The notes beneath the pieces are model-generated. The model saw nothing but the letters and a program-made list of their open reading frames with translations, was not told the DNA's origin and did no database searches. A DNA stretch of 64,000 nt from an uncultured delta proteobacterium (GTDB lineage: Bacteria; Desulfobacterota; SM23-61), in NCBI GenBank assembly GCA_963712535.1, contig CAVQIK010000017.1, positions 2,451 through 66,450 of the forward strand, in the 5' to 3' direction. The position numbers and the translations under genes are program-made. Shown piece by piece: positions 42,275-56,855 of this stretch. Within the stretch, counting starts at the first letter, position 1, and every line of letters begins with the position of its first letter.

Positions 42275-42398
42275 GTAGCTTCGTGATTCAATGCATCTTG
42301 GCTAAGATTGATTCGTGATCCGAGAGGTATCCGGTATGGGTATGAGTCGTCGCTGTTTTCCGGTCCATATAGAACGCTGGTGTCCTTGGCTCTCAAGG

Positions 42399-42848
42399 TT
42401 AATAGCACGGAACAACTTCCCAATATCCGTCTGGCACCTGAACGTTATATAAATTCCCGGTATTGGGGTCCTGCCTCGTTTCCGTGTGATAGCTGCCGGT
42501 GGGCACCCACCTTTGGCACACGCCGTAATAGGGGTAAGTGTAGTAGGAGCCGTCCGACCAGTACCCTCCGTACAATCCAACCCCGAACCCGAAGAACGGA
42601 CCATAACCGAAATGTCCCCCGTGGTGAGAAGGATAGCCGTGGAATCCTCCGTAGGATCCTCCGTGGAATCCTCCCGGGTGTCCTCCAAAGCCCCCACCCT
42701 GAAACCCCCCGCCGTGAGACCCGCCGCCATGAAACCCGCCCCCATGAAATCCCCCGCCGAATCCGCCGTGAGCGTCCAGGATTAGGGGCGCGAGGATGAA
42801 AAAGACACTCACGAAACAAGCGACTAAAACGACTATTAATTTTTTCAT
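42399..42848 (-). CDS. Exported Gly/His-rich hypothetical protein
   Basis: Signal peptide, GGGFH repeats, Tyr-rich tail with 2 Cys. Confidence 0.7.
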   Translation of the reverse strand: MKKLIVVLVACFVSVFFILAPLILDAHGGFGGGFHGGGFHGGGSHGGGFQGGGFGGHPGGFHGGSYGGFHGYPSHHGGHFGYGPFFGFGVGLYGGYWSDGSYYTYPYYGVCQRWVPTGSYHTETRQDPNTGNLYNVQVPDGYWEVVPCY

Positions 42849-43131: not shown

Positions 43132-43926
43132 TTATCGAAACCGGGAAAAATCCGGCGGCCGTTTTTCATTGAAGGCGTTCAAGCCTTCTTTAGCCTCGTC
43201 GGTTTTTACAAAGAGCTCCAGGTTGATATGGGACAGCGCCCCGATTCCGGCAATCGATTCGCTGTCGGCGTTGAACGAGGTTTTCAAAGCCCGGAGCGCC
43301 GTCGGGCTCTTGTCCAGCATATCATCGGCCCAGCGGCGCACTTCCGCTTTCAATTCGGACAAAGGCACCACTTGATTCACCAGGCCCCAGTCTTTCATCG
43401 TCGCGGCGTCATACTGGCGGCAGCAGTACCAGAACTCCCGGGCCCGTTTGTCGCCGATGATTCGCGCCAGGAACGCGGTGCCAAACCCTGCGTCAAACGA
43501 GCCGACCCGGGGACCGGTCTGGCCGAAACGGGCATGGTCGGCGGCGATGGTGATGTCGCAGAGGACATGAAACACATGCCCCCCGCCGATGGCAAATCCG
43601 TTCACCGCCGCGATGACCGGCTTGGGCACCTCCCGGATGAGACGGTGAAAATATACGATTTCCGGCACTCCCGTCTCCATGGGCCCGTAATCCCCGGTTT
43701 CTTTGCGCTGCTTTTGATCCCCTCCCGTGCAAAATGCCTTGTCGCCCGCCCCGGTCAAGGCGATCACACCCACCCCGGGATCAGCCCAGGCAGCCTTGAA
43801 ACAGCAGATCAGTTCGTCAATCGTCCGGTTGGTAAAGGAGTTGTAACGGTGCGGCCGGTTGATCGTGATCCAGGCCAGGCCGCGGTCGACTTCATACAGC
43901 ACATCGGTGAGTTCGCTCAGTTTCAT
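43132..43926 (-). CDS. Crotonase-family C-C hydrolase (BadI / MenB-like)
   Basis: AFCTGGDQK, GFAIGGG, FGQTGPRVGSFDAGFG. Confidence 0.85.
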   Translation of the reverse strand: MKLSELTDVLYEVDRGLAWITINRPHRYNSFTNRTIDELICCFKAAWADPGVGVIALTGAGDKAFCTGGDQKQRKETGDYGPMETGVPEIVYFHRLIREVPKPVIAAVNGFAIGGGHVFHVLCDITIAADHARFGQTGPRVGSFDAGFGTAFLARIIGDKRAREFWYCCRQYDAATMKDWGLVNQVVPLSELKAEVRRWADDMLDKSPTALRALKTSFNADSESIAGIGALSHINLELFVKTDEAKEGLNAFNEKRPPDFSRFR

Positions 43927-44020
43927 TCTTTCTCTCCTTCGCTGTTTCTTGCGTTAAGTTTTGAGATTTGAGGCTTGGGCCATAACCCCTCTGCGTGCTT
44001 TCGATCCCTCCGTTTCATTT

Positions 44021-45333
44021 TCACTTCTCCGGCGCGAGCGCCACTCTTTCGACTTTAGCCAGATCCCGTTGGTAAAAGCGGGAGCCGATATAGAAGAGAA
44101 GGAATGAGATCAGGGCCATGGAGCAGGCCATCTTCAAAGCCGGAGCGATCCCATAACGGTCGGAGAGTGCGCCGGTCACGAGCGGCCCGAGAGAGCTGCC
44201 GAGAAGGTTTTGGACGACCACGCACAAGGCGTAGGAAATCGCCCTCAATCCCGGGTGAACGACATCCTGGGTGACCGCGATGGCCGAGGAAGCCCAGGCG
44301 ATGGAGGCGATCCCGCCGAGGAGGAAGATTCCGTACTGGACCGCTCCGCCGGAGAAAAAGTGAATCGCGCTGAAATACAGCGCCACCGTGAGCACCGCGG
44401 AGATGGAAGGGACCAGCAAACGGGCCTGGATTCTCTTTTTCATCCAGGAATCCGCAATCCAACCACCCAGAGGAGAACCGACAATGGCGGTAAGCATGAT
44501 TCCGCTGGTCAAAAACGTGGCTTTCTGCAATCCCACCGACTGGACCCTTTGAAAATAGGTGGGCAAAAAAGAGGACATGGATATGGAGACGAACATCATC
44601 CCGGCGAACCCGAAGTACGTGAAGAGAAGGGAAGGGGTCCGGGAAAAAGTCCGGACGATATCCATCCGGGACATCTTTTTCTTCACCCCCTCGGCTGTTT
44701 GCTTCAACCCTTCCGGGCCGATCGTTTGTTCCAGGCCGACGGTCCGGTAATCCTTTATGAAGAAGAACAGAAGGGCGACGAACAGGCCCGGGAGGGCCAC
44801 CACACCGAAAGCGCGGCGCCAACCCCAGTGGGTGGCGATAATCCCCCCGAGGACGATTCCCGCGGCCATGCCGATGGGAATGGACATGTTCCAGATCCCC
44901 ACCATGAATGCCCGCCTCTTCTCCGGGTACAAGGCAGAGATCATGGCCGTTCCACCGGGCGCATAGCCGGCTTCCCCCAACCCAATCGCCGTCCGCGCGC
45001 CGAACAGCTGGCCAAGTTTTTGGTCAGGGCGCAAGCTGCCGTCGCCAGACTCCACAGCACGGCCATGATGCCGATGCTCTTCTTCCGGCTCCAGCGGTCG
45101 ATTACAATGGATATGGGAAAAGAGAAGACGATGATCGCCCAGTACACGGCGGATACGAGGGCGCCGCACTGGGTGTCGGTCAGTCCCCAATCGGCCTTCA
45201 GAAAAGGGAAGAGGGAGACGACCACCATTCGATCGACATAATCAAAGAAATAAAGGAGCCAGAGCAGGAGGAAGATATAGGAGGTGTAAGCTTTCGAGAA
45301 AAGGTAACCTTCGGGAGGCGGCGCTTTCGTCAC
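44021..45333 (-). CDS. Spinster-like MFS transporter (frameshift ~45010)
   Basis: YFFDYVDR...LTDTQCG..DRWSRK..LWSLAT then ARTAIGLGEAGY..WGWR; GTG start after GGAGGA. Confidence 0.82.
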
Positions 45334-45398
45334 GGCGGGTCCTCCGGCACACAAGAATTTAAATTTTTATCACCCCCGCCCTCACTCTCCCCCGTCGA

Positions 45399-45900
45399 GG
45401 GCATAAGCGCTAACTTAGGATTTTTTTCTTCAATTCCCCCCTTTGCAAAGGGGGGCCAGGGGGGATTTCTGCTGATAGGTTCTCTTTAAGGGTACGGTAG
45501 ATAACCTCCGCCACCGCCTCCCTTTCCTTCAGAACTTCTCTGCTGGTAAATCGCAAGACTTTGAACCCAAGAGAGGCCAAATAGTCATCGCGATTTTTAT
45601 CTTTCTTGGCTTGTTTTTCTTCCACGTGCTGTGATCCATCAACTTCTATGACCCACTTTGCCCGTGGCGCGAAGAAATCCACGATATATTCGCCAATGGG
45701 TTTCTGACGATAAAATTGGACACCAAGGACCTGTTTACTCCGCAATCCTGACCAAAGAGCTCTTTCGCTCTCTGTCAAATTACTTCGCAATTGGCGGGAT
45801 CTGGCTTTGAGATTTGCCCAGTACTTCAACACGGCTCGGCTCCCACTGAAAATCCCCCCTCCCCCTTTTTCAAAGGGGGGTTAAGTTAGCGCCTATGCCC
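45399..45900. mobile_element. 502-bp non-autonomous element carrying DUF559
   Basis: 19-bp TIR GGGCATAAGCGCTAACTTA / TAAGTTAGCGCCTATGCCC (18/19); 5-bp TSD GTCGA at 45394-98 and 45901-05. Confidence 0.85.
45410..45832 (-). CDS. DUF559 (Vsr-like PD-(D/E)xK) endonuclease domain protein
   Basis: LRSNLTESERALW..LR..Q..G.QFYRQKPIGEYIVDF..VIEVDGSQH..D..RD..L..GFKVLRF. Confidence 0.9.
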   Translation of the reverse strand: MLKYWANLKARSRQLRSNLTESERALWSGLRSKQVLGVQFYRQKPIGEYIVDFFAPRAKWVIEVDGSQHVEEKQAKKDKNRDDYLASLGFKVLRFTSREVLKEREAVAEVIYRTLKENLSAEIPPGPPLQRGELKKKILS

Positions 45901-45977
45901 GTCGAGGGGGAGAGTAAGTTTGGGTCTCGGGATGTGGACTAAATTTCCCATTGACTGTACCCTTTCTGCTCTTCCCT

Positions 45978-47693
45978 CTATACTCCTTTCAAAAACCTGG
46001 AAATGTCTGCTCCCCCGATCATGGCCAGCCCGATGCTCCCGGGGCTGATCGGTTTGGGGTCGGTGAGGACATTCAGGCACACCGGAACATTCGCGGCAAA
46101 GGCTTCTTCCAGGGCCGGCCGGAGGTCGTCGGGGTTCTCCACCAGAATACCCTTTCCGCCCAGGGCCTCCACGGCCTTATGGTAATTGACCATCCCGATC
46201 TCCGCTCCTTCCCGGATATATCGGCCCAGCTTCACTTCCTGCGAGTGGCGGATCATTCCCCAATGCTGGTCGTTGCATATGACGGTGACGGTCGGCAGAT
46301 GCTTCCGGATAGCGGTCTCGAATTCCATGAAGTTGAACCCGATGGACCCGTCCCCCGTCACCAAGCAGACTCTCTTCTCCGGGTAGAGGAGCTTGGCGGC
46401 GTTGGCATAGGGAAGGCCGCAGCCCAGGCAGCCGAACAGATCGGCGTCCAGGTAGTGCCCCGAGCGCCGAGCCGTCCGGGTCATGGACATCCAGACCCGC
46501 GTGTCCCCTCCGTCGCTGATCACGAGGTCCTCTTCCCGGTCCAGAAATTTGTCGATCTCCGAGCAGATGCGCATGTGGTGGGCCGGGACGGCCTTGCTCT
46601 CCCAGGCCAGGGCCCCGAATTTCTTCTTTTCCCTCTCTTTGGTTTTGAGAAAATCGACCCAGGACGCAAACCGTCGCCGCAGCCCGGCGCCCTTGCCCCG
46701 CTCGGAGACCATCCGGTTCAGGGCCCCGAGAAACGCCCGGATGTCGCTGTGGATTCCGAGGTGAATGGCGCGATTTCTCCCGATCTCCTCCGGCTGGATG
46801 TCCACCTGGACCAGCCTGGCCTTGGAATTAAGCATCTCCCCGTAGGCATAATACAGGCTCAGGCGATTGCCCAAAAGCACGATGAGGTCGCCGCCGGTCA
46901 GAGCATCGGCGCCGGCGCCGGGGCGGATGGATGATGAGGCCTGAAAACACAAAGGGTGGGTGTCGGGAATCAGCCCGCGACCCATGCTGGCGGTAAATCC
47001 AGGGGCGCCCGACATTTCGATGAACTCGAGGAATTCTTTCTCCGCCCCCGAATAATACGCGCCGCTCCCGGCGATGAAGACCGGCCTCTCCGCCCTCTCG
47101 AGCAGGTCGAGCAGCTCGCCGGCCTTTTCCAGGTCCACCGCCCGCGAGGTGAAAACCGTGTTGGGTCTTTTAACCGTGTTCTCCTCGACCTGGGCGCTCC
47201 AGATGTCCACGGGCAGCTCCAGGTACACGGGCCCGGGCCGGCCGCTCGCCGCCGTCCGGTAAGCCAGGTCGATGTATTCGGGGATTCTCTCGGTCCTGTT
47301 GCAGCAGAGGGCGGTCTTGACCAGCGGCTCGACAACCGGAAGCTGGCGCATGTCCTGCAGGTCCAGTTTTTCCCGGGCCCTGAGCCCGACGGCGCCCGCG
47401 ATGAGGAGCAGGGGGGAGTTGGCCATCTGGGCGTTGGCGACCGCGCTGATCGAGTTGCTGAAGCCGGGGCCGGCCGTCACCAGGGCCACGCCGGGTCTCC
47501 GGGTTAATTTCCCCCAGGCCTCGGCCATGAACACGGATGCCTGTTCATGGCGGGTGGTAAAGATCTCGAGGAGGGACCCTTCGGCGGATTCATAGAGAGG
47601 ATTGATGTGTCCTCCGGAAAGGCTGAATACCTTCGTAACACCCTTCTCGATCAAGGCGTCAACCGCGAGCTGACCGCCGGAAATCATGGGCAT
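45978..47693 (-). CDS. TPP-dependent enzyme, 2-hydroxyacyl-CoA lyase/IlvB-like
   Basis: FSLSGGHI, RHEQ, TAGPG, GPVYLELP, GDGSIGF..ND motif. Confidence 0.88.
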   Translation of the reverse strand: MPMISGGQLAVDALIEKGVTKVFSLSGGHINPLYESAEGSLLEIFTTRHEQASVFMAEAWGKLTRRPGVALVTAGPGFSNSISAVANAQMANSPLLLIAGAVGLRAREKLDLQDMRQLPVVEPLVKTALCCNRTERIPEYIDLAYRTAASGRPGPVYLELPVDIWSAQVEENTVKRPNTVFTSRAVDLEKAGELLDLLERAERPVFIAGSGAYYSGAEKEFLEFIEMSGAPGFTASMGRGLIPDTHPLCFQASSSIRPGAGADALTGGDLIVLLGNRLSLYYAYGEMLNSKARLVQVDIQPEEIGRNRAIHLGIHSDIRAFLGALNRMVSERGKGAGLRRRFASWVDFLKTKEREKKKFGALAWESKAVPAHHMRICSEIDKFLDREEDLVISDGGDTRVWMSMTRTARRSGHYLDADLFGCLGCGLPYANAAKLLYPEKRVCLVTGDGSIGFNFMEFETAIRKHLPTVTVICNDQHWGMIRHSQEVKLGRYIREGAEIGMVNYHKAVEALGGKGILVENPDDLRPALEEAFAANVPVCLNVLTDPKPISPGSIGLAMIGGADISRFLKGV

Positions 47694-47720
47694 TCATTCT
47701 CCTTCTATCCTTCAATTTTA

Positions 47721-48026
47721 GGATCATCGCCAATTTGCGTGAAGAAAAATAGGGTGGCAAAGGTAACTTGTGCTGCTTCCAGGGGCCCGGAAGGAAAGGC
47801 AGATTCCGCCACAATCCTGAGGCACGTATTCCTTCTTGGTTCTGGCGGGGATGTTCTTCTATCCTCCGAATCAACCCTTTCCTGTCCCCGCAGCGCCTTT
47901 CGGAAAGTTCGCCAGCCCTTTGACCGAAGCTTTATCCCGCCAAGGCTTGCGGCGGAATCTGCCTTTCCTTCCGGACCCTTGTGAGGCTTTAAGCAAATAT
48001 TCGATCACGTAAATCGGAGATGATCC
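47721..48026 (+). mobile_element. MITE family A, copy 3
   Basis: TIRs; perfect 8-bp TSD CAATTTTA; internal 32-bp stem with 2 mismatches. Confidence 0.88.
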
Positions 48027-48073
48027 CAATTTTATTAAAGGCAGTTAAACACCGGTAAGCCCGGCAATCCGGA

Positions 48074-49099
48074 TCAGAACTCTTCTCCGATCCGCAGCAT
48101 CGCCTTCACGGCCTTCCCGGCATGTATCCGCTGCTCATAGACTCGGGGTAAGGAGTCCAGGGGAATCAGGTCGGTAATCAAGGGCCGGGCGTCGATCTTG
48201 CCTTCAGACATCAAATCAAGGATACGAACATTTTCCGAGTGCGTGTTCGAATAAGAACCGGCAACCCGGATTTCTTTGAAATTCAGGGCCGTAGGCTGGG
48301 GGATCGCCACACTCTTGAAGATGATGCTGATGATACAGAGGCAGCCCCTTTTCGCCGCAAGCTCAATACCCAGGGGGACGTTTTCGGGCAGCCCGGAGCA
48401 CTCCAGGATGGTATCGAAGCCGATTCCCCGAGTCCATTGCTGGGTGCTCTCTCTCAGGTTTTCGTGGAGAGGATCGATGGTGAAATCAGCGCCGAAAAGC
48501 CGGGCTATATCCCGCTTCTCCTTCAAGGGCTCGGAAAGCGCTATTGGGCCGAAACCCTGGAGCTTCAGGAGTTTGACGGCGGCCAGGCCGATCGGCCCCC
48601 CGCCGACCACGAGGACGGAACCGCCTTCCGCCCCTGCGTAGCGGATCCCGTGGAGGGCGGAGGCAAATGTCTCCGCGAGGGCCGCGTTCCGGGAATCCAC
48701 CCCCTTGGGCACGGGGATCACCATTTGAGGATAGACTTTCACGTATTCGGCAAACCCCCCCGGAAGATCCCCGATTCCGATCGTCCGCCGGCCTTCTTTG
48801 CACAGGTGAGGCCGGCCCAGGAGGCACTCCCGGCACCCTCCGCAGAAGGTCGGGCGGATCACGACCCGCAGCCCACTTTCCATTTCGTTGACCCGCTTAC
48901 CCCAGGCAGCGACCGTTCCGCTGACCTCGTGGCCCAGGATGATTCCGTCGGGGAGCAACCCGCTTTCCAGCAGGGAATGATCCGACCCGCAGAACCCGGT
49001 GTCGGAGACCTTAACCAACACCCCGTCTGACCCGGGATCCGGAATCGGGAGGTCTTCTAAAACCAGTCCTTTCGATCGGCGGAACACGGCGGCTTTCAT
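48074..49099 (-). CDS. Zn-dependent medium-chain alcohol dehydrogenase
   Basis: GFCGSD, GHE, CGGCRECLLGRPHLC, GGGPIG. Confidence 0.92.
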   Translation of the reverse strand: MKAAVFRRSKGLVLEDLPIPDPGSDGVLVKVSDTGFCGSDHSLLESGLLPDGIILGHEVSGTVAAWGKRVNEMESGLRVVIRPTFCGGCRECLLGRPHLCKEGRRTIGIGDLPGGFAEYVKVYPQMVIPVPKGVDSRNAALAETFASALHGIRYAGAEGGSVLVVGGGPIGLAAVKLLKLQGFGPIALSEPLKEKRDIARLFGADFTIDPLHENLRESTQQWTRGIGFDTILECSGLPENVPLGIELAAKRGCLCIISIIFKSVAIPQPTALNFKEIRVAGSYSNTHSENVRILDLMSEGKIDARPLITDLIPLDSLPRVYEQRIHAGKAVKAMLRIGEEF

Positions 49100-49180
49100 G
49101 TATGCGTATTCTTCCGGTGCGAGGGAAAATTCTCTGCGCAAATGAGACTCATAAATTAGAAATTTAAAATCTTAAAAAAA

Positions 49181-50509
49181 TCATTTCAAACTATATAAAT
49201 CATTCAAGTATTCCACTGCGAGGTTTTGAGCCGCTTTCCTGTCGGGCATGGTTCCTATCATGCCATACATTGCGGCTTCCCCCGAAGGCGCTGCCGACCC
49301 GGTCCGTAAAGTCTCGGCGGCAGTTTCCCGGAGATCCTTAAGAAACTGCTTTGCGATTTTCTCGTGGTAAGGGGAGACGGTCAGGTGAAGGCTGGGCGGG
49401 CGATGCTGGGCATGCAGATGCCACCGCCGTTCTTTCAGCTTCACCGCCAGCTCGTAAAGATTGAGGCTGTGTGAACCGATGGCAAAGACGGTCGCCGGGG
49501 GTTCTCCGAGGACAAACAGGCCGGGGATGCTGCCGACCCCTTCCATCATCTCCACCGTGGCCTCCCGGGCCGCCCCAGCGAGCTTCAAAAATCCCTCTTC
49601 CCCCAGGTAACGCAGCATCGCCCACGCGGAGGCAATCGCGCCCCCGGGCCTGGCTCCGGCCAGGGAAGGGGTGGCATAGATTCCGCCGGGCCAGTCCGCG
49701 TAAACGAAGAACTGGTGGCGGCGAAGCTCCCTGTTCCGGTAGAGAACGGTCGAGGCCCCCTTGGAAACGTAACCGTACTTGTGAATATCCACGGAAAGGG
49801 ACTTGACCCCCGGCACGGAAAAGTCGTAAAGCGGAATTGCGTGGCTCAATTTCTTGAGGAAGGGGAGCATGTAACCGCCCAGGCAGGCATCGACGTGGAA
49901 CCAGAGGTTCTTCCCGGCAGCCAGGCCGCCGATTTCGGCGATCGGATCTATGATCCCGTGAGGGTACGTGACCGCGGTAGCCGCCACCATGACGGTGTTC
50001 CCGGTGATGGCCTGCTTCATGGCTTCAACATTCGCCCGAAACGCCCCATCGACGGGGGTTTGTACGATCCTCAGCCCAAGGTAATGCGCGGCCTTATTGA
50101 AAGCCGGATGGGCGGTTACCGGCGCGACCAGCTCCGGACTTTGAACCTCGGGCCGGTGAACCCTGGCCCAGTCTCTTGCCGCCTTTACGGCCATGAGAAT
50201 GCTCTCCGTGCCTCCCGAGGTCATGGACCCGGCGGTCTCCTCGTCTCCGCCGAATAACCCGGCGGCCATGGAGATGAATTCGGTCTCCATCTTTACCAGG
50301 CTCGGAAAATCGAAGGGGCTCAGGGCGTTCTCGAACAGGTAGGCGGAATACGCGTCCCCCGCCATTTCTTCCACTTCCCTCCCGGCGTAGTAGATTAACC
50401 CGAACATGCGCCCGTCATGCCAATCCGAATCGCCCGCCTTGAAAGAACGGAGCAAAGAAAGAACTTTCTCTTTTGGCAATCCCTTTTCGGGTAGTGATAA
50501 CCGTTTCAT
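49181..50509 (-). CDS. Sphingosine-1-phosphate lyase-like PLP enzyme (group II decarboxylase)
   Basis: NALSPFDFPSL, TSGGTESIL, AHPAFNKAA, HVDACLGG, SVDIHKYG, WPGGIYATP..G.RPG. Confidence 0.85.
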   Translation of the reverse strand: MKRLSLPEKGLPKEKVLSLLRSFKAGDSDWHDGRMFGLIYYAGREVEEMAGDAYSAYLFENALSPFDFPSLVKMETEFISMAAGLFGGDEETAGSMTSGGTESILMAVKAARDWARVHRPEVQSPELVAPVTAHPAFNKAAHYLGLRIVQTPVDGAFRANVEAMKQAITGNTVMVAATAVTYPHGIIDPIAEIGGLAAGKNLWFHVDACLGGYMLPFLKKLSHAIPLYDFSVPGVKSLSVDIHKYGYVSKGASTVLYRNRELRRHQFFVYADWPGGIYATPSLAGARPGGAIASAWAMLRYLGEEGFLKLAGAAREATVEMMEGVGSIPGLFVLGEPPATVFAIGSHSLNLYELAVKLKERRWHLHAQHRPPSLHLTVSPYHEKIAKQFLKDLRETAAETLRTGSAAPSGEAAMYGMIGTMPDRKAAQNLAVEYLNDLYSLK

Positions 50510-50575
50510 AAAAATCCTGTATCTTCCGTAAGTCGTTTACCCCCTGACCAGTTTTCCAAGGTTGCCATGAAGCCT

Positions 50576-50659
50576 CAGAAATCCCCCTTAATCCCCCTTT
50601 TTCAAAGGGAGAAACCATAACTCCTCCCTTTGGAAAAGGGAGGTTGGGAGGGATTTCTG
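50576..50659. repeat. Double REP hairpin (REPIN-like)
   Basis: Same architecture as 36900 and 39123. Confidence 0.75.
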
Positions 50660-50687
50660 GATCGCGTTTCAAACATCGAAGTCTTTC

Positions 50688-50718
50688 AATCCGTAATCCG
50701 TAATCCGCAATCCGCAAT
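50688..50718 (+). repeat. Heptamer tandem repeat AATCCG(T/C) x4
   Basis: Read directly from the sequence. Confidence 0.8.
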
Positions 50719-51554
50719 TACACTGCCATCAGCAGCCCACCGTCCACGTTGATCGCCTGCCCGGTGATGTAGCCCGATTCCTTGGAGGCCAGATAGGCGG
50801 TGACGTCGGCGACGTCTGCGGGGGCGCCGATTTTCCCCTGAGGGACCTCGTTGGCCCAGAATTTTTCCCGCTCCTCAACCGTCTGGCGCAGGAACTTGGC
50901 TTCCATTTCAAAACGATAGACCTGCAGATCGGTCATGACAATCCCGGGACAGACGGCGTTCACCCGAATCCCCTGCCGGGCCAGTTCCAGGGCCATGACC
51001 TTGGTGAGCATGATCACTCCCGCTTTGGCGACGGCGTAGGCGCCGTTTGCCAGAGGGGGGGTCTTCCCGGCCCTAGAGGCAATGTTAACAATCGAGGCCG
51101 GCTTCCGGGTCATCAGCGGAAGGACAGCCCTGGACACGCGAAAGGTGCCGTGCAGATTCACGTCGATGGTCTTCATCCAGGCTTCTTCATCGTAGGCGTG
51201 GGCCGGGCTGGGGGCGCCGAAGGTCGCGCCGGCGTTGTTGACGAGCACATCCACCCGATCGAACCCGTCTTTTATTTTCGCGACCATCTCCCGGATGGAG
51301 TCGCCGCTGGTCACGTCCAGGTCCAGGGCGACCGCTTGAACCCGGTATTTATCCATGAGACCTCCGGCAATGCTCTCCATCTCCTGCCGCAGGCCCCTCC
51401 GGACGCCGCCCACCGCCTCGGGCCCCTTCCCCAGGTCGGCGATGATCACGTTCGCGCCGCATGAGGCGATCTTCTCGGCGATCGCAAAACCGATTCCGGT
51501 CCTCTTTCCCGCCCCAGTAATGAGGGCTGTGTTCTCTTTCAGGTCCTCATACAT
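50718..51554 (-). CDS. Short-chain dehydrogenase/reductase
   Basis: TGAG..GIG, NNAG, YAVAK. Confidence 0.92.
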   Translation of the reverse strand: MYEDLKENTALITGAGKRTGIGFAIAEKIASCGANVIIADLGKGPEAVGGVRRGLRQEMESIAGGLMDKYRVQAVALDLDVTSGDSIREMVAKIKDGFDRVDVLVNNAGATFGAPSPAHAYDEEAWMKTIDVNLHGTFRVSRAVLPLMTRKPASIVNIASRAGKTPPLANGAYAVAKAGVIMLTKVMALELARQGIRVNAVCPGIVMTDLQVYRFEMEAKFLRQTVEEREKFWANEVPQGKIGAPADVADVTAYLASKESGYITGQAINVDGGLLMAV

Positions 51555-51558
51555 GCTG

Positions 51559-51996
51559 TCATCCTTTTCTCGAAGCGGCGGGTTTCTCAAGGTAAACCTT
51601 CATCAGGATTTTTCCCCATCCCCCTTTGTCGAGGCCCACGTCCGCGCACTGGACGACGTGGAACCGTTCGAACCCCGGGTCGGATCCGTTCATCAGCCGC
51701 TCGGATATGGCCGGCAAAACGTGGCTGACCGGAACCAGGGCGGAGAGGCATATATTTCGGGGGCTCTCCTCCGTGAGCAGTTGGCCTCCGGGGGTGAGCA
51801 CGAAACGGTCGCCGACCTTGTGGCGGGCATGGCACCCGTGGGATTCGATCACCTCGGCGATGACCCGGCATTTGATGAACTCGGGGGTTCCGGTCACCAT
51901 CTTAACTTTCACGGGGTCGGACCGGAAAACTTTCATCTCTTCGTCCGTGTATCCCATGTGTATTTGAAACCTTCCCCAGATTTCATTCGTATCCAT
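51559..51996 (-). CDS. Small Cys-rich protein (TIGR04076-like)
   Basis: EVIESHGC..HKVGDRF..ICLSAL..QCADVG; RBS AGGAGG. Confidence 0.7.
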   Translation of the reverse strand: MDTNEIWGRFQIHMGYTDEEMKVFRSDPVKVKMVTGTPEFIKCRVIAEVIESHGCHARHKVGDRFVLTPGGQLLTEESPRNICLSALVPVSHVLPAISERLMNGSDPGFERFHVVQCADVGLDKGGWGKILMKVYLEKPAASRKG

Positions 51997-52233
51997 TTTC
52001 CATCCCTCCTTCGAAGGCTTTCGCTCGAACCGGCTTCCAATCCGCTCCATTCGGAATATATATAATTTCTCCTTTGCCGTCCAGGCGATTTTCTTAATGC
52101 CGTGGAACCTGGGGCGTGACTCCAGAAAACTAGGCGGATTCAGGGAAGGGGATTTTCCCAGTTGATCGCCGTCTTCTTTTGGGTTAGGCTATTCAAGAGA
52201 TTAAGCCAGATGCTGCGGGAGCCAGGAGGTAGG

Positions 52234-53458
52234 ATGTCGAAACCGATTGTCTCGATCGTGAAAGCGGGGGAGGATGTGGAGCTCGCCGTCCGGGAAGCCG
52301 TTGCCCTGGCCGGAGGCTTGGGGGATATCTTGACCTCCAGGTCGAGGGTATTGATTAAGCCCAACATTGCCTCGCGCGACCGGTCGGGAACGGGAAAGAT
52401 CACCGATGCCCGGGTGACCCGCGCCATCACTAAAATGGTGCTGGAATATAAACCCAAGAGCGTAACCATAGGAGAGGGCTCTGCCGTGGGCTTTGACTTT
52501 CCCGAGCTCCAGGATACGACTTCGGCTTTGGAAGAATCGGGGACCAAAGACGTTGCGGAGGAACTGGGGGTTCCGCTCGTCGATTTGAACACGGACGATC
52601 ACGAGGAGGTGGAGGTCTCCCAGTCCTCTGGTGATGAATTCTGTGAAGATCGCCCAGACGGTCCTGGACAGCAACGTGATCATCAGCGTGCCGGTATTGA
52701 AAACCCACATTCGGTCCGCCGTTACCCTCTCCCTGAAGAATATGAAGGGAGCGATGCCGGGGGAGGAGAAGAAGAAAACGCACCGGCTGGGGCTGGAAAT
52801 GGCCATCGCCGATTTGAACTCCGTCATCCGGCCTCATTTCGTAGTCGTCGATGCGCTGATGGGCATGGAGGGGCTTTGGGAATACCCGGACGATTGCGTG
52901 CCCATGGGTTTGATCGGGGCCGGGCGGGATCCCGTGGCCGTCGACGCGACCTTCGCCCGGGTGGCGGGAGTCAGCCCGGGCGAGATCTCGCACCTTCGGA
53001 ACTGCCAAAAGAAGGGGCTGGGGGTCTTCGACCCAGAGGAGATCGAAGTTGCGGGGGTACAGGTTTCCGAAGTGCGGCGCCCATTCCGCAGGGCTTTTGA
53101 GGTCCTGCAGAACCGCTACCCCGGGTTGAAGATCATGGCCGAGAAAGCCTGCACCGGGTGCACCAACGAATTCATCAGCACGCTGATTTATCTCCGCGAA
53201 GCACAACAGGTCGACAAGCTGAAGGATTTGACGGTCATCATGGGCGAGGGCGTGCAGAATCTCAAGGGCGGGAAAGCCGTTGTCCTCGGAACCTGCGGCC
53301 GCAACGGGAATGAAAATCTCCCCCATGTGCCCGGCTGCCCGCCGAGCCCGGACGACATCACCCAAAAAATCTGCCAGGTGTGCGATATCGATGTCCAGCT
53401 CGTCTTTGGGAAGCGGGATGAACTTCACCGCATGACCGCCGGGAAAGGGCTTCACTAG
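52234..53458 (+). CDS. DUF362 Fe-S protein (frameshift ~52625)
   Basis: VLIKPN, IGEGS, PVLKTH, LSLKNMKG, DPVAVD; C-terminal CTGC/GTC/GCPP. Confidence 0.85.
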
Positions 53459-53555
53459 CCCTGGGTTCCAATTCCGTGTGCCTTGACCGGAGGCAGCTTT
53501 CCGGGCGCACACGTTTTCTCCCGGGCTCCCGCCGGCCATTCGGAAATACCTCAGC

Positions 53556-54461
53556 ATGGAGAACCCGATTTACCCAAAGATTGCCGTGATCGTGAACTCC
53601 TCTTTGGGTTCGAAATCCTACCGAAATTTGAGCGCCGAAGGTCTTCGCGCGCTTCTTCCCAAAGACAAACCCATGGAAGTCACCATTGCGAACGGGAACG
53701 ATTTGAGGGAAATCACCCGGCGCCTGGCTTTATCCGGTGCCGACCGGATCGTGGCGGCCGGCGGAGACGGCACGGTCAGCGCCGTTGCCGGGGTCCTGGC
53801 CGGGAAAGACATCCCCATGGGCATCCTGCCGCTGGGCACCTTCAATCATTTCGCCCGGGATAATGGGATCCCTTTTGACTTGCCGTCGGCGATACGGACG
53901 GCGGCGGAAGGCCTGCCGCGCGCGGTCGACGTCGGGGAGGTAAACGGGCGCGTCTTCATCAACAGCTGCTCCGTGGGAATTTATCCGGCGGCGATCAAAC
54001 GGCGGGATGATTACATGAACCGCATGAGAGTGAGAAAACTCGTGGCCATGGCGCTCGGATTGGTCAGCGTCTTTCGCCGATTTTCCCCGTTTACGGTCAA
54101 ACTGGAGACGGAAACGGTAACGATCGAGCGAATCACTCCCTTCGTGTTCGTGGGAAACAACGCCTATTCTTTCGACCTGCTGAAACTGCTCCGGCGCTTC
54201 ACCCTCACCGGCGGGCAATTGGGCCTGTACACCTCCCATTGGAACGGAAGGTGGAGCATCCTCCGCCTCGCCTTAATGGCTATCCTCGGGCTTCTCCGGC
54301 AGGAGAAGGACTTTGAAATGTATGCCGCCGAGGAAGTCCGGCTGGAGACCCGCAGGACAAGGGTGAGGGTCGCCGCCGACGGCGAGATTTTTCACCTGGC
54401 CACCCCGCTGCATTTTCGAATCCGGCCCGGCGATCTCAAAGTCATCGTGCCTCCTGCCTGA
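53556..54461 (+). CDS. Diacylglycerol/sphingosine kinase family lipid kinase
   Basis: GGDGTV, LPLGTFNHFARD, VDVG, ADGE. Confidence 0.9.
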   Translation: MENPIYPKIAVIVNSSLGSKSYRNLSAEGLRALLPKDKPMEVTIANGNDLREITRRLALSGADRIVAAGGDGTVSAVAGVLAGKDIPMGILPLGTFNHFARDNGIPFDLPSAIRTAAEGLPRAVDVGEVNGRVFINSCSVGIYPAAIKRRDDYMNRMRVRKLVAMALGLVSVFRRFSPFTVKLETETVTIERITPFVFVGNNAYSFDLLKLLRRFTLTGGQLGLYTSHWNGRWSILRLALMAILGLLRQEKDFEMYAAEEVRLETRRTRVRVAADGEIFHLATPLHFRIRPGDLKVIVPPA

Positions 54462-54653: not shown

Positions 54654-55461
54654 ATGAAAACCATCGCCCACCTTTCCGACCTGCACTTCGGCGCCGAGGA
54701 TGAGAAGATCGCCCAAGCTCTGAAGGAGGAAGTTCTGCGCTCCGGGCCCGATCTGCTTGTAATCAGCGGGGACCTTACCCAGCGGGGCCGAAAAGGACAG
54801 TTCGCGGCCGCGAAAGAATACCTGGGCGGATTTCCGTTTCCCCGATTGATCGTTCCCGGAAATCACGATCTTCCTCTGGTGAACCTATTCCGCCGAAGCT
54901 TGTCGCCCCTGGCGCGCTATCGCCGCTATATCAGCAACGAACTGGACCCATTTTACCGCGACGACGAAATCGCGGTCTGCGGGGTGACTTCGCCGAGGCG
55001 GCTAAGCTGGAAATCGGGCAGGGTCTCGCTGGAGCAGATGGAAGGGATGAGGGAAAAGCTGTGCCCGCTTCCGGGTTCCGTCTTCAAAATGGTCGCGACC
55101 CATCACCCTTTCATCCCGCCGCCCGAGGATGAAGGCGTCAAAAGTGATCGGCCGTTCCTGGAGGGCCCTGGAGGTGATGGAGGAATGCGGGGTGGAACTC
55201 GTGCTCACCGGTCATCTCCACCACGAGTATTCCGGGGACATCCGGCCTTACTACCCGCAGGCCCGCCGCTCGATCATCGTGGTCCAGGCGGGGACCTCCA
55301 TCTCGACGAGAACTCGAGAACACCCCAACGGCTATAACCTGGTCCTTGTTTCTTTGGACCGGATTGACATCCAGGTGCGGGGATGGGACGGGAGCCGTTT
55401 CGAGGACGGTTTGAAGACCTCGTATGTCAAGGAGGGCCAGGAGTGGAAGCGGATGAAGTAA
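54654..55461 (+). CDS. Calcineurin-like metallophosphoesterase (frameshift ~55143)
   Basis: SDLHFG, SGDLT, PGNHD, THHP, then LTGHLH in the next frame. Confidence 0.87.
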
Positions 55462-56487: not shown

Positions 56488-56545
56488 GATACCTTCCCTC
56501 CTGTAAAGAAAAATCCGGCGAGTTTGACTGGCGATTATTTTTTCT

Positions 56546-56855
56546 GGATCATCTCCAATTTAGTTGATCGAATTCTTCTTGAAAACCTAACAAGGGTTCG
56601 GAAGGAAAGGCAAATTCCGACACAAGCATTGGCGGGATAAAGCTTCGGTACCAAGGACCGAATGGCTCTCCGCGATGCGCAGCGGGGGCCTGAACGGGCC
56701 TGCTTCGAAGGACAGAAGAACATCCCCGCCAGAACCATGAACGGATAGGTGCGTCATGATTGTGGCGGAATTTGCCTTTCCTTCCGGACCCCTGGAACCC
56801 CAGCACAATTTACCAGTCCCGCCGTATTTTCCTTCAACTAAATTGGAGAGGATCC
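56546..56855 (-). mobile_element. MITE family A, copy 4 (reverse orientation)
   Basis: TIRs; flanks TTTTTTCT / TTTTTTCC (7/8); closest to copy 2. Confidence 0.87.

Follow-up and report, generated by a model that had tools for sequence, protein, structure and literature searches.

On the minus strand of the 64,000-nucleotide stretch of DNA analysed here (the window; contig CAVQIK010000017.1 of assembly GCA_963712535.1, from an uncultured delta proteobacterium), five genes encode a short-chain dehydrogenase/reductase (SDR), a pyridoxal 5'-phosphate (PLP) enzyme of the sphingosine 1-phosphate (S1P) lyase family, a zinc-dependent medium-chain alcohol dehydrogenase (ADH), a thiamine diphosphate (ThDP) enzyme and a Spinster-like transporter of the major facilitator superfamily (MFS). 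These five genes would form an accessory catabolic cassette, with three multicopy repeats inserted between the genes in the window. It is possible, and this is the reading that we tentatively prefer, that the cassette serves to take up a sphingoid-type amino alcohol, to split it in a retro-aldol reaction and to process the resulting aldehyde, independently of oxygen and without a route through a kinase and a 2-hydroxyacyl-CoA lyase (HACL). The original prediction, made from the sequence alone, had modelled the pathway on eukaryotic phytosphingosine catabolism and had also drawn in a lipid kinase, a crotonase-family hydrolase and a small cysteine-containing protein. Every gene that it named is confirmed in position and strand by the gene inventory, which is based on the listing of open reading frames (ORFs) and on family profile scans of the window proteins; as a general description, its route through kinase, S1P, HACL and crotonase is unlikely.

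Recurrence and order of the five genes

Related loci were collected in a scan of species-representative genomes and a scan of metagenome contigs. After removal of nine duplicates, 72 loci remained, with a PLP gene at 37–77% identity, and in 43 of them this identity is at least 66%. A locus is called assessable for a given gene when it has enough flanking sequence or when the gene has been found, and the shares given here are thereby biased upward. When considering the 43 closer loci, the MFS gene accompanies the PLP gene in 18 of 20 assessable loci, the ADH gene in 25 of 31, the SDR gene in 24 of 32 and the ThDP gene, on either side, in 10 of 15. The order SDR-PLP-ADH-ThDP-MFS is found, for example, in L009, L012 and L014, and the ThDP gene lies downstream of the ADH gene also in L087, L089 and L111. 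The order ThDP-SDR-PLP-ADH-MFS is found in genome G002 and likewise in L103 and L105, where no MFS gene occurs within the available stretch; L080 and L115 also have the ThDP gene upstream of the SDR gene. Reduced versions are present as well (SDR-PLP-ADH-MFS, PLP-ADH-MFS, SDR-PLP-MFS and PLP-MFS). That the same five genes occur in two arrangements is good evidence for a functional unit. The SDR, PLP, ADH, ThDP and MFS genes form a conserved five-gene unit with a patchy distribution, and the co-occurrence that the original prediction proposed as a check is found for these genes, not for the kinase, the crotonase or the small cysteine-containing protein.

The patchiness is seen within the order to which the window genome (G000) belongs, in which 8 of 17 genomes carry the PLP gene. 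Likewise, 8 of the 17 have an orthologue of the ThDP gene with 59% identity or more, and 7 of these 8 also carry the PLP gene. In G004 (locus L184; G004:C104, 6675–7490), remnants of the PLP gene (residues 1–94 and 127–219) and of the ADH gene (residues 49–142) sit between an intact SDR gene and intact ThDP-MFS genes, which is the decay expected of an accessory unit.

The genes that adjoin the set vary from locus to locus. A gene for an aldehyde:ferredoxin oxidoreductase follows the MFS gene in L004, directly precedes the PLP gene in L015 and precedes the ThDP gene in L103, which fits an oxygen-independent route through an aldehyde; in this respect the original prediction, which had proposed oxygen independence, agrees with the related loci. 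TetR regulators head the set in L088, L089, L103 and L105, with remnants in four further loci, an acyl-CoA dehydrogenase gene precedes the SDR gene in L009, L014 and L102, and a gene for a patatin-like phospholipase is found upstream in L092–L094. At the related loci, no acyl-CoA synthetase or CoA ligase and no oxygenase is conserved in the gene set.

The lyase, its partner enzymes and the transporter

The PLP enzyme (442 residues; 49181–50509, minus strand) is assigned by its sequence to the S1P lyase family, in a non-canonical short clade, and not to the decarboxylase branches. When compared with solved structures, it scores 376 bits with human SGPL1, 373–374 with the Symbiobacterium thermophilum enzyme StSPL, 323 with yeast Dpl1p, 312 with the Burkholderia S1P lyase and 222 with that of Legionella; the ten S1P lyase chains thus range from 222 to 376 bits, as against 114 for MfnA and at most 84 for glutamate decarboxylases. 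The family membership claimed in the original prediction therefore holds. It could be supposed that the enzyme has kept, or reverted to, the decarboxylation of an amino acid and works with a permease as an exchange system, and the match to the Pfam family Pyridoxal_deC (88 bits), the score on the MfnA profile (228.8 bits) and the permease genes, which are the most constant neighbours of the PLP gene, are in agreement with this. We consider it highly improbable, as the MfnA cut-off of 299.4 is not reached, the solved S1P lyases outscore the decarboxylases threefold, Y105 and K317, the substrate residues specific to the lyases, are retained, and an exchange system would leave the dehydrogenases, the ThDP enzyme and the oxidoreductase without a role.

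The active site was compared with that of StSPL, using the residue list in an excerpt of PMC10243590; the chain index corresponds to the residue number plus one, as checked on D274, H310, K311 and K317. In the alignment, K311, K317, Y105, N126, D274, H310, G168 and T169 are conserved in the window enzyme, and H201, as read from a single alignment, is also kept. Three residues are replaced: H129 of StSPL corresponds to Ser64, S353 to Ala286 and A103 to Leu38. According to the same excerpt (PMC10243590), H129 and S353 are residues of the phosphate site of StSPL. The human and StSPL chains have His and Ser at these positions in the alignment, and the Burkholderia enzyme is described in an excerpt of PMC5234717 as carrying the equivalent of Ser353, which is also a PLP-phosphate ligand there. 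Of the phosphate site (Y105, N126, H129 and S353), the tyrosine and the asparagine are thus kept and the other two residues are replaced, so that the inspection of these residues suggested in the original prediction does not speak for S1P. The same pattern is preserved throughout the clade, as scored in 19 aligned members from 18 other loci. The eight conserved residues are kept in 18 of the 19, the remaining member (L021) having a gap at three C-terminal sites. The H129 position is occupied by Ser in 16 members and by Asn in 3, and the S353 position by Ala, Thr or Gly in 18, being unread (X) in L021.

The position of the enzyme within the family was examined in a tree, as the original prediction had advised. 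Representatives at 50% identity were searched in full, which gave 1359 proteins at E <= 1e-30, and the alignment of 156 rows consists of 147 representatives of at least 380 residues and 9 proteins from the window and the loci. The His/Ser pair is present in 50 of the 156 rows, most of which are long forms with an N-terminal extension, as judged by the match coordinates. After eight fragmentary or aberrant rows had been dropped, a FastTree of 148 rows was calculated and midpoint-rooted; its representatives are unnamed, and the canonical clade is defined in it only by the H/S motif of the characterised enzymes. In this tree, a single starred clade (support 97) unites 49 of the 50 His/Ser rows. 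The window protein is found in a clade of six rows (support 95), outside a 77-row clade (support 95) that contains all His/Ser rows. By its sequence, the enzyme thus appears to lie outside the canonical-motif S1P lyase clade, from which it is separated by starred branches, while its place in the family is kept. Because it lies outside this clade and two phosphate-site residues are gone, S1P itself, the substrate of the original prediction, is doubtful.

This has a consequence for annotation. A word-indexed search listed 120 relatives with 60–100% identity and lengths of 363–477 residues, which are annotated by their sources as 'sphinganine-1-phosphate aldolase', 'aspartate aminotransferase family protein' or 'glutamate/tyrosine decarboxylase-like'. 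The first of these has been given by JGI to many of the closest listed relatives. It is probably wrong for this clade, even if the substrate is a small polar amine, and metabolic reconstructions should not take the automatic labels of the clade as evidence for S1P metabolism.

The ThDP enzyme (45978–47693, minus strand) has three domains and, judged by its matches to solved structures, is assigned to the group of benzaldehyde lyase (BAL), HACL and oxalyl-CoA decarboxylase (OXC), resembling BAL at least as much as HACL. The best solved match is BAL (266 bits, co-linear from 1–554 to 1–554), followed by the 2-hydroxyacyl-CoA lyase/synthase HACS with 261 bits, and the catabolic acetolactate synthases (ALS) reach at most 197 bits. 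No curated model is passed. The scores are 312 bits on the HACL model NF058623 (cut-off 600), 284.6 and 263.8 on the OXC models (cut-offs 557 and 739), and 274.7 and 269.9 on the ALS models TIGR00118 (biosynthetic; cut-off 538) and AlsS (cut-off 510); the top-scoring model is PRK05858, named 'acetolactate synthase', with 409.6 bits against a cut-off of 587. ALS was considered as the identity of the enzyme and rejected, all ALS models being below their cut-offs and the solved ALS structures scoring at most 197 bits versus 266 for BAL. The C-terminal 132 residues match BAL/formolase with 78.8 bits, HACL1 with 55 and the actinobacterial AcHACL with 45, and over 115 residues of the C-terminal pyrophosphate domain the alignment to BAL is free of gaps.

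His29 and Gln113 are present in all seven ThDP orthologues compared (the window protein and six others), and residue 29 of BAL is a histidine in the alignment, as in the window enzyme; we take His29 and Gln113 to be the catalytic pair of BAL, a role that our literature search did not confirm. In an excerpt of PMC8760513, E493 of the actinobacterial HACL is described as a catalytic glutamate on a short helix. Its counterpart in the window enzyme, weakly placed and by eye only, would be an isoleucine in the stretch W-G-M-I-R. Of the HACL/IlvB-like enzyme of the original prediction, the wider BAL/HACL/OXC group is retained and the acetolactate synthase is set aside; the assignment to HACL itself is not, in view of the HACL score and the BAL-like C-terminus.

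The MFS gene is described by alignment with its orthologues at 44021–45333 (minus strand) in two frames, and the ORF listing gives 44021–45190. The comparison with solved structures was made with the full-length orthologue of L004, which matches entry 6e8j with 111 bits, human spinster homolog 1 with 70, the D-galactonate transporter DgoT with 62 and SPNS2 with 51. We take 6e8j, whose entry title reads 'Major facilitator family transporter', to be a bacterial Spinster homologue. Full-length orthologues have a complete MFS_1 domain (about 200 bits), and the truncated ORF of the window scores 109.8 bits on TIGR00893. By its closest solved relatives the protein is classified as Spinster-like, as had been predicted.

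The ADH gene (48074–49141, minus strand; true start probably Met15) encodes a protein of the threonine/polyol dehydrogenase type with ADH_N and ADH_zinc_N domains. It scores 173.8 bits on the Tdh model (cut-off 458), and its solved matches are 4ej6 (164 bits), threonine 3-dehydrogenases (128–141) and sorbitol dehydrogenase (110). The SDR gene (50718–51590, minus strand; true start probably Met13) is directly upstream of the PLP gene. Its product matches adh_short_C2 with 194.5 bits and, with glucose 1-dehydrogenase (139 bits) and FabG (127 bits) as the best solved matches, is predicted to be FabG/glucose-dehydrogenase-like.

From these assignments, the following sequence of steps can be proposed. 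The MFS protein would import an amphipathic sphingoid-type amino alcohol with a 2-amino-3-hydroxy motif. The S1P-lyase-family enzyme would form an aldimine between this compound and PLP and break the C2-C3 bond in a retro-aldol reaction, generating an aldehyde and a small C2 amine, a chemistry that is suggested by the conservation of the catalytic residues. The head group would probably not be a phosphate, or would be bound otherwise than in S1P; since the phosphate site has lost two of its residues and the set is not accompanied by a kinase, cleavage of a free or otherwise substituted base might proceed without ATP. The two dehydrogenases, with the aldehyde:ferredoxin oxidoreductase in some relatives, would interconvert or oxidise the aldehyde, and the ThDP enzyme, where present, may shorten a 2-hydroxy carbonyl product by one carbon in a CoA-free, BAL-like reaction. 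A sphingoid-type substrate is favoured because characterised members of the lyase and MFS families handle S1P or lysolipids, and because the lyase is very close to lipid-cleaving enzymes.

A more far-reaching version of this proposal, which we regard as unlikely, is that a widespread clade of the S1P lyase family in anaerobes cleaves non-phosphorylated long-chain amino alcohols. The candidate substrates would be sphingoid bases that are either free or, like capnine, sulfonated, with release of ethanolamine or taurine. Combined with a Spinster-type importer, the two dehydrogenases and the BAL-like ThDP enzyme, the lyase would give a sphingoid-base degradation route independent of kinase, ATP, CoA and oxygen. 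Common anaerobes, among them Bacteroidota, make sphingolipids and sulfonolipids, and such a route, if true, would account for the mineralisation, in anoxic sediments, soils and digesters, of these lipids from Bacteroidota and from eukaryotic detritus.

Several observations weigh against a sphingoid-type substrate and the proposed steps. The related loci are kin and do not count as independent observations. Dehydrogenases of the threonine/sorbitol type, to which the ADH belongs, act mostly on small polar substrates. Phosphate might still be bound with Ser at the position of His129 and Ala or Thr at that of Ser353, and a kinase elsewhere in the genome may supply the phosphate. The ThDP gene is missing in 5 of the 15 assessable loci and the ADH or SDR gene in some, and the minimal pair therefore consists of the PLP and MFS genes. 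Spinster-family proteins are exporters in animals, which makes the direction of transport ambiguous. Finally, the PLP enzyme has other partners in its distant clades (42–60% identity), where a gene for a DUF819 permease is found in 6 of 12 assessable loci and one for a TauE/SafE-family permease in 6 of 17. A three-gene module DUF819-PLP-TauE/SafE is present in L010, L011 and L083, on Dehalococcoidia-like and other contigs, the pair PLP-TauE in L099, L127 and L086 (the last with little upstream flank) and the pair DUF819-PLP in L019 and L114. In an excerpt of PMC8396727, DUF819 is placed in the CPA/AT superfamily, carriers of ions and charged solutes. These partners point to a small charged substrate in the distant clades, and the three-gene module may be a sign that a sister clade of the enzyme acts on another substrate.

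A serious rival, although we consider it somewhat unlikely, is a substrate that is small and polar: an amino alcohol or amino-polyol whose anionic head group is, for example, a sulfonate or carboxylate would be imported by an anion-type permease and cleaved by the PLP enzyme, the dehydrogenases and the ThDP enzyme acting on short hydroxy-carbonyl fragments. This is in agreement with the type of the ADH (threonine, sorbitol or galactitol-1-phosphate dehydrogenase), with the matches of the MFS protein to D-galactonate transporters (DgoT and TIGR00893), with the DUF819/TauE permease modules of the sister clades and with the clade-wide alteration of the phosphate-site residues. However, 6e8j, if it is the Spinster homologue that we take it to be, outscores DgoT nearly twofold, the lyase is very similar to the lipid-cleaving S1P lyases, and the DUF819 and TauE partners come from clades of 42–60% identity, which may have other substrates. 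The known anaerobic route for D-cysteinolate also uses other enzymes, namely a racemase, HpsN and CuyA in the part of the pathway described in an excerpt of PMC12814064, and a D-cysteinolate pathway was rejected on this ground.

It is also conceivable, though distinctly unlikely in our estimate, that the cassette is biosynthetic: the ThDP enzyme as a carboligase, the PLP enzyme in the aldol direction and the two reductases would build an amino-diol or hydroxy-ketone, which the Spinster-type MFS protein exports under TetR control. Lipids are exported by the animal Spinster proteins, BAL-type enzymes are good carboligases, TetR regulators are found upstream in the four loci named above, and the patchy occurrence of the cassette, with the PLP gene in about half of the genomes of the order, is consistent with such a role. 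The aldehyde:ferredoxin oxidoreductase beside three loci points instead to breakdown, and the single-enzyme modules between two permeases in the distant clades suggest the conversion of an imported compound. In addition, the activating and tailoring enzymes typical of biosynthetic clusters are not conserved in the set. The preferred reading remains the catabolic one, with a sphingoid-type substrate.

Neighbouring genes, repeats and frameshifts

Three neighbours that the original prediction had counted as pathway members do not belong to the cassette. The lipid kinase (53556–54461, plus strand) is of the YegS/BmrU/MamU type, with 87.9 bits on DAGK_cat and 205 bits on the MamU model (cut-off 400). 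Its eight solved-structure matches are all bacterial proteins of the DgkB/YegS/BmrU type (best 68 bits), with no sphingosine kinase among them. At E <= 1e-30 the kinase is confined to 1 of the 17 genomes of the order, the other 16 having no orthologue, and the flanks of the related loci do not contain its gene either (0 of 4 assessable loci). The crotonase (43132–43926, minus strand) is MenB/BadI-like, with 344 bits on the MenB model (cut-off 380), 311.5 on BadI (cut-off 467.6) and 319 with solved MenB. No orthologue at E <= 1e-60 is found in the 7 other PLP-bearing genomes, the only matches at this threshold in the order being in G007 and G011, both without the PLP gene, and in 0 of 4 assessable loci does a crotonase gene adjoin the PLP gene. 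The small cysteine-containing protein (163 residues; 51559–52050, minus strand) is TIGR04076-like, its 27.5 bits being below the cut-off of 33; none of the 21 assessable loci has such a gene within 8 kb of the PLP gene, and the sole homologue at the related loci is 8.5 kb away from it, in L012.

These data bear directly on the route as originally written, in which the kinase supplies an S1P lyase, phosphoethanolamine and a (2-hydroxy) fatty aldehyde are released, and the aldehyde is converted to a CoA ester that is cleaved by HACL, with the crotonase acting downstream. The enzyme families match, and the eukaryotic phytosphingosine route through a 2-hydroxy fatty acid and HACL1/2 is established, as stated in an excerpt of PMC10398889. 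Furthermore, the window genome is the only one of its order that has two serine-palmitoyltransferase (SPT)-like genes together with the kinase, and a full phosphate route is therefore conceivable in this one organism. Nevertheless we consider the route very unlikely. The kinase is confined to this genome within the order and has no sphingosine kinase match, the crotonase is absent from the other PLP-bearing genomes, and H129 and S353 are replaced in a lyase that lies outside the canonical-motif clade. The ThDP enzyme reaches about half of the HACL cut-off, its C-terminal domain is nearest to that of BAL, and no acyl-CoA synthetase is conserved.

The SPT-like genes are an observation in their own right. 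At E <= 1e-80 they are found in the window genome and in none of the 16 other genomes of the order. One, on contig C20, reaches 600 bits on a betaproteobacterial-type model with a cut-off of 500. Its gene row (C20:71359–84246; L183:6359–19246) consists of genes for a fatty acyl-AMP ligase, an NAD-dependent epimerase-like reductase, the SPT-like transferase and an MsbA-like ABC exporter, near which LptG, metallophosphoesterase and CDP-alcohol phosphatidyltransferase-like genes are found. The other (C13:5038–7220; L182) scores 560.7 bits, with a cut-off of 640, and adjoins a similar reductase. On this evidence the window organism may itself make sphingolipids, which suggests a recently acquired sphingolipid synthesis in a Syntrophales-like anaerobe. 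Turnover of the organism's own sphingolipids was considered as the general role of the cassette and rejected, because the seven other PLP-bearing genomes are without SPT-like genes at this threshold.

The intergenic repeats noted in the original prediction are indeed multicopy elements of the genome; the copy numbers given here refer to genome copies of at least 80% of the length. Between the ThDP and ADH genes lies a MITE-like (miniature inverted-repeat transposable element-like) repeat of 274 nucleotides with inverted ends of 39 nucleotides (47777–48050; labelled I1–I4), present in 62 copies on 19 contigs. The same MITE-like element is also found at 56522–56797, and its word depth is very high in four metagenome runs. 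A near-perfect palindrome of 84 nucleotides (50576–50659; labelled I6) is located between the PLP and SDR genes and has 92 copies on 20 contigs; its word depth rises to 4404 in run X2. The third repeat (45381–45918, minus strand; labelled I5), between the ThDP and MFS genes, has 538 nucleotides with inverted ends of 37 nucleotides and is present in 15 copies on 10 contigs, the best genome copies being 98–99% identical. It encodes only a DUF559 protein of 140 residues with a Vsr-like endonuclease fold (45410–45832, minus strand; 123.7 bits on DUF559) and looks like a small, recently active mobile element.

Contigs from four public metagenome runs were aligned to the region. A contig of run X3 joins position 47698 to 48037 with 25 other letters between them, and a close relative without the MITE-like repeat at this site is therefore indicated. 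The same contigs bear on two frameshifts. The MFS orthologues (434–437 residues) align to 45333–44956 in one frame and to 45022–44027 in another, the frames being separated by a shift of one nucleotide near 45013/45014. At this site one extra base is present in a contig of X2 (at 45014) and in one of X3 (at 45013), and the contigs of the best-matching run, X1, end at 45014 and restart at 45073, leaving the frameshift unbridged. The DUF362 gene, which lies between the operon and the kinase gene (52162–53458, plus strand), matches profile positions 1–84 at 52162–52700 and positions 87–199 at 52631–53458, and a contig of X1 is without one base at 52618. As independent contigs differ by one base at both sites and other genes of the assembly are also in pieces, old pseudogenes are a less likely explanation of the two frameshifts than indels of the assembly or strain-specific lesions, and the frameshift in the MFS gene is probably an assembly error. 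The other fragmented genes of assembly G000 are at C4:59886–60906, C9:46892–47797 and C15:599722–600206, and the completeness estimate of 75.55% for this 22-contig genome may be low through indel errors.

Some features of the surroundings remain to be mentioned. An ORF of 375 residues (52430–53557, minus strand) was rejected as spurious because it is without a family match and overlies the DUF362 gene. Scans of the window for terminator-like sites (14, with 13.3 expected) and for promoter-like sites (8, with 3.9 expected and a standard deviation of 2.1) are uninformative on operon breaks. At 42637–42765, 12-nucleotide direct repeats (a 24-nucleotide unit, four times) occur within overlapping ORFs (42302–42848) that match no family. 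Beyond the kinase gene, family scans identify a metallophosphoesterase ORF (54654–55337, plus strand), which has weak matches to anti-phage phosphoesterase models, far under their cut-offs; its final 60 or so residues resemble out-of-frame sequence, and this may be another frameshift.

Comparison with known systems

In the literature searched, no description of the five-gene set was found, nor one of anaerobic sphingoid-base breakdown or of the degradation of capnine or sulfonolipids by an S1P-lyase-type enzyme. The only bacterial locus for sphingoid-base metabolism found in this search is sphBCD of Pseudomonas aeruginosa, which, as described in an excerpt of PMC11398299, belongs to an aerobe and encodes a periplasmic oxidase and a cytochrome c, enzyme families unlike and unrelated to those of the cassette. 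The latter is a concrete candidate for anaerobic sphingoid-base breakdown, comprising a distinct lyase subfamily with a remodelled head-group pocket.

The cassette shares with eukaryotic phytosphingosine degradation a lyase of the same family and a ThDP enzyme of the same wider group, and also the logic, in which the release of an aldehyde precedes its shortening by one carbon. It differs in that no kinase, aldehyde dehydrogenase or CoA ligase is conserved, in that the ThDP enzyme fails the HACL model and is BAL-like, and in the presence of a ferredoxin-dependent aldehyde oxidoreductase in some loci. When the ThDP enzyme is compared with the BAL of Pseudomonas fluorescens and the designed formolase, these give the best match both over the full length and in the C-terminal part, and His29 and Gln113 are shared. 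The similarity is nevertheless moderate, and the window context is without genes for aromatic compounds, so that a BAL-like ThDP enzyme appears here in a non-aromatic context.

The transporter is most similar to Spinster proteins, as shown by the matches of its orthologue to 6e8j, again taken as a bacterial member, and to SPNS1 and SPNS2, although the match to DgoT falls between those to the two human proteins and a function like that of an anion:cation symporter is possible. We know of no established substrate for the bacterial Spinster-like proteins, and such a transporter gains a plausible physiological partner in the cassette.

The closest comparison is with the S1P lyases themselves (SGPL1, StSPL and the Burkholderia enzyme S1PL2021). 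The window enzyme resembles them as a fold-type I PLP enzyme, matched over nearly the full length with 312–376 bits, which keeps the Schiff-base lysine and the second lysine, Tyr105, Asn126, Asp274 and His201, as well as the PLP-phosphate ligands Gly168, Thr169 and His310; like the Burkholderia enzyme it is also without a membrane anchor. Unlike them, it has Ser for His129, Ala for Ser353 and Leu for Ala103, and its association with dehydrogenases, a ThDP enzyme and an MFS transporter goes unmentioned in the S1P lyase literature searched. The finding is a new subfamily of the S1P lyase family in a new conserved gene context.

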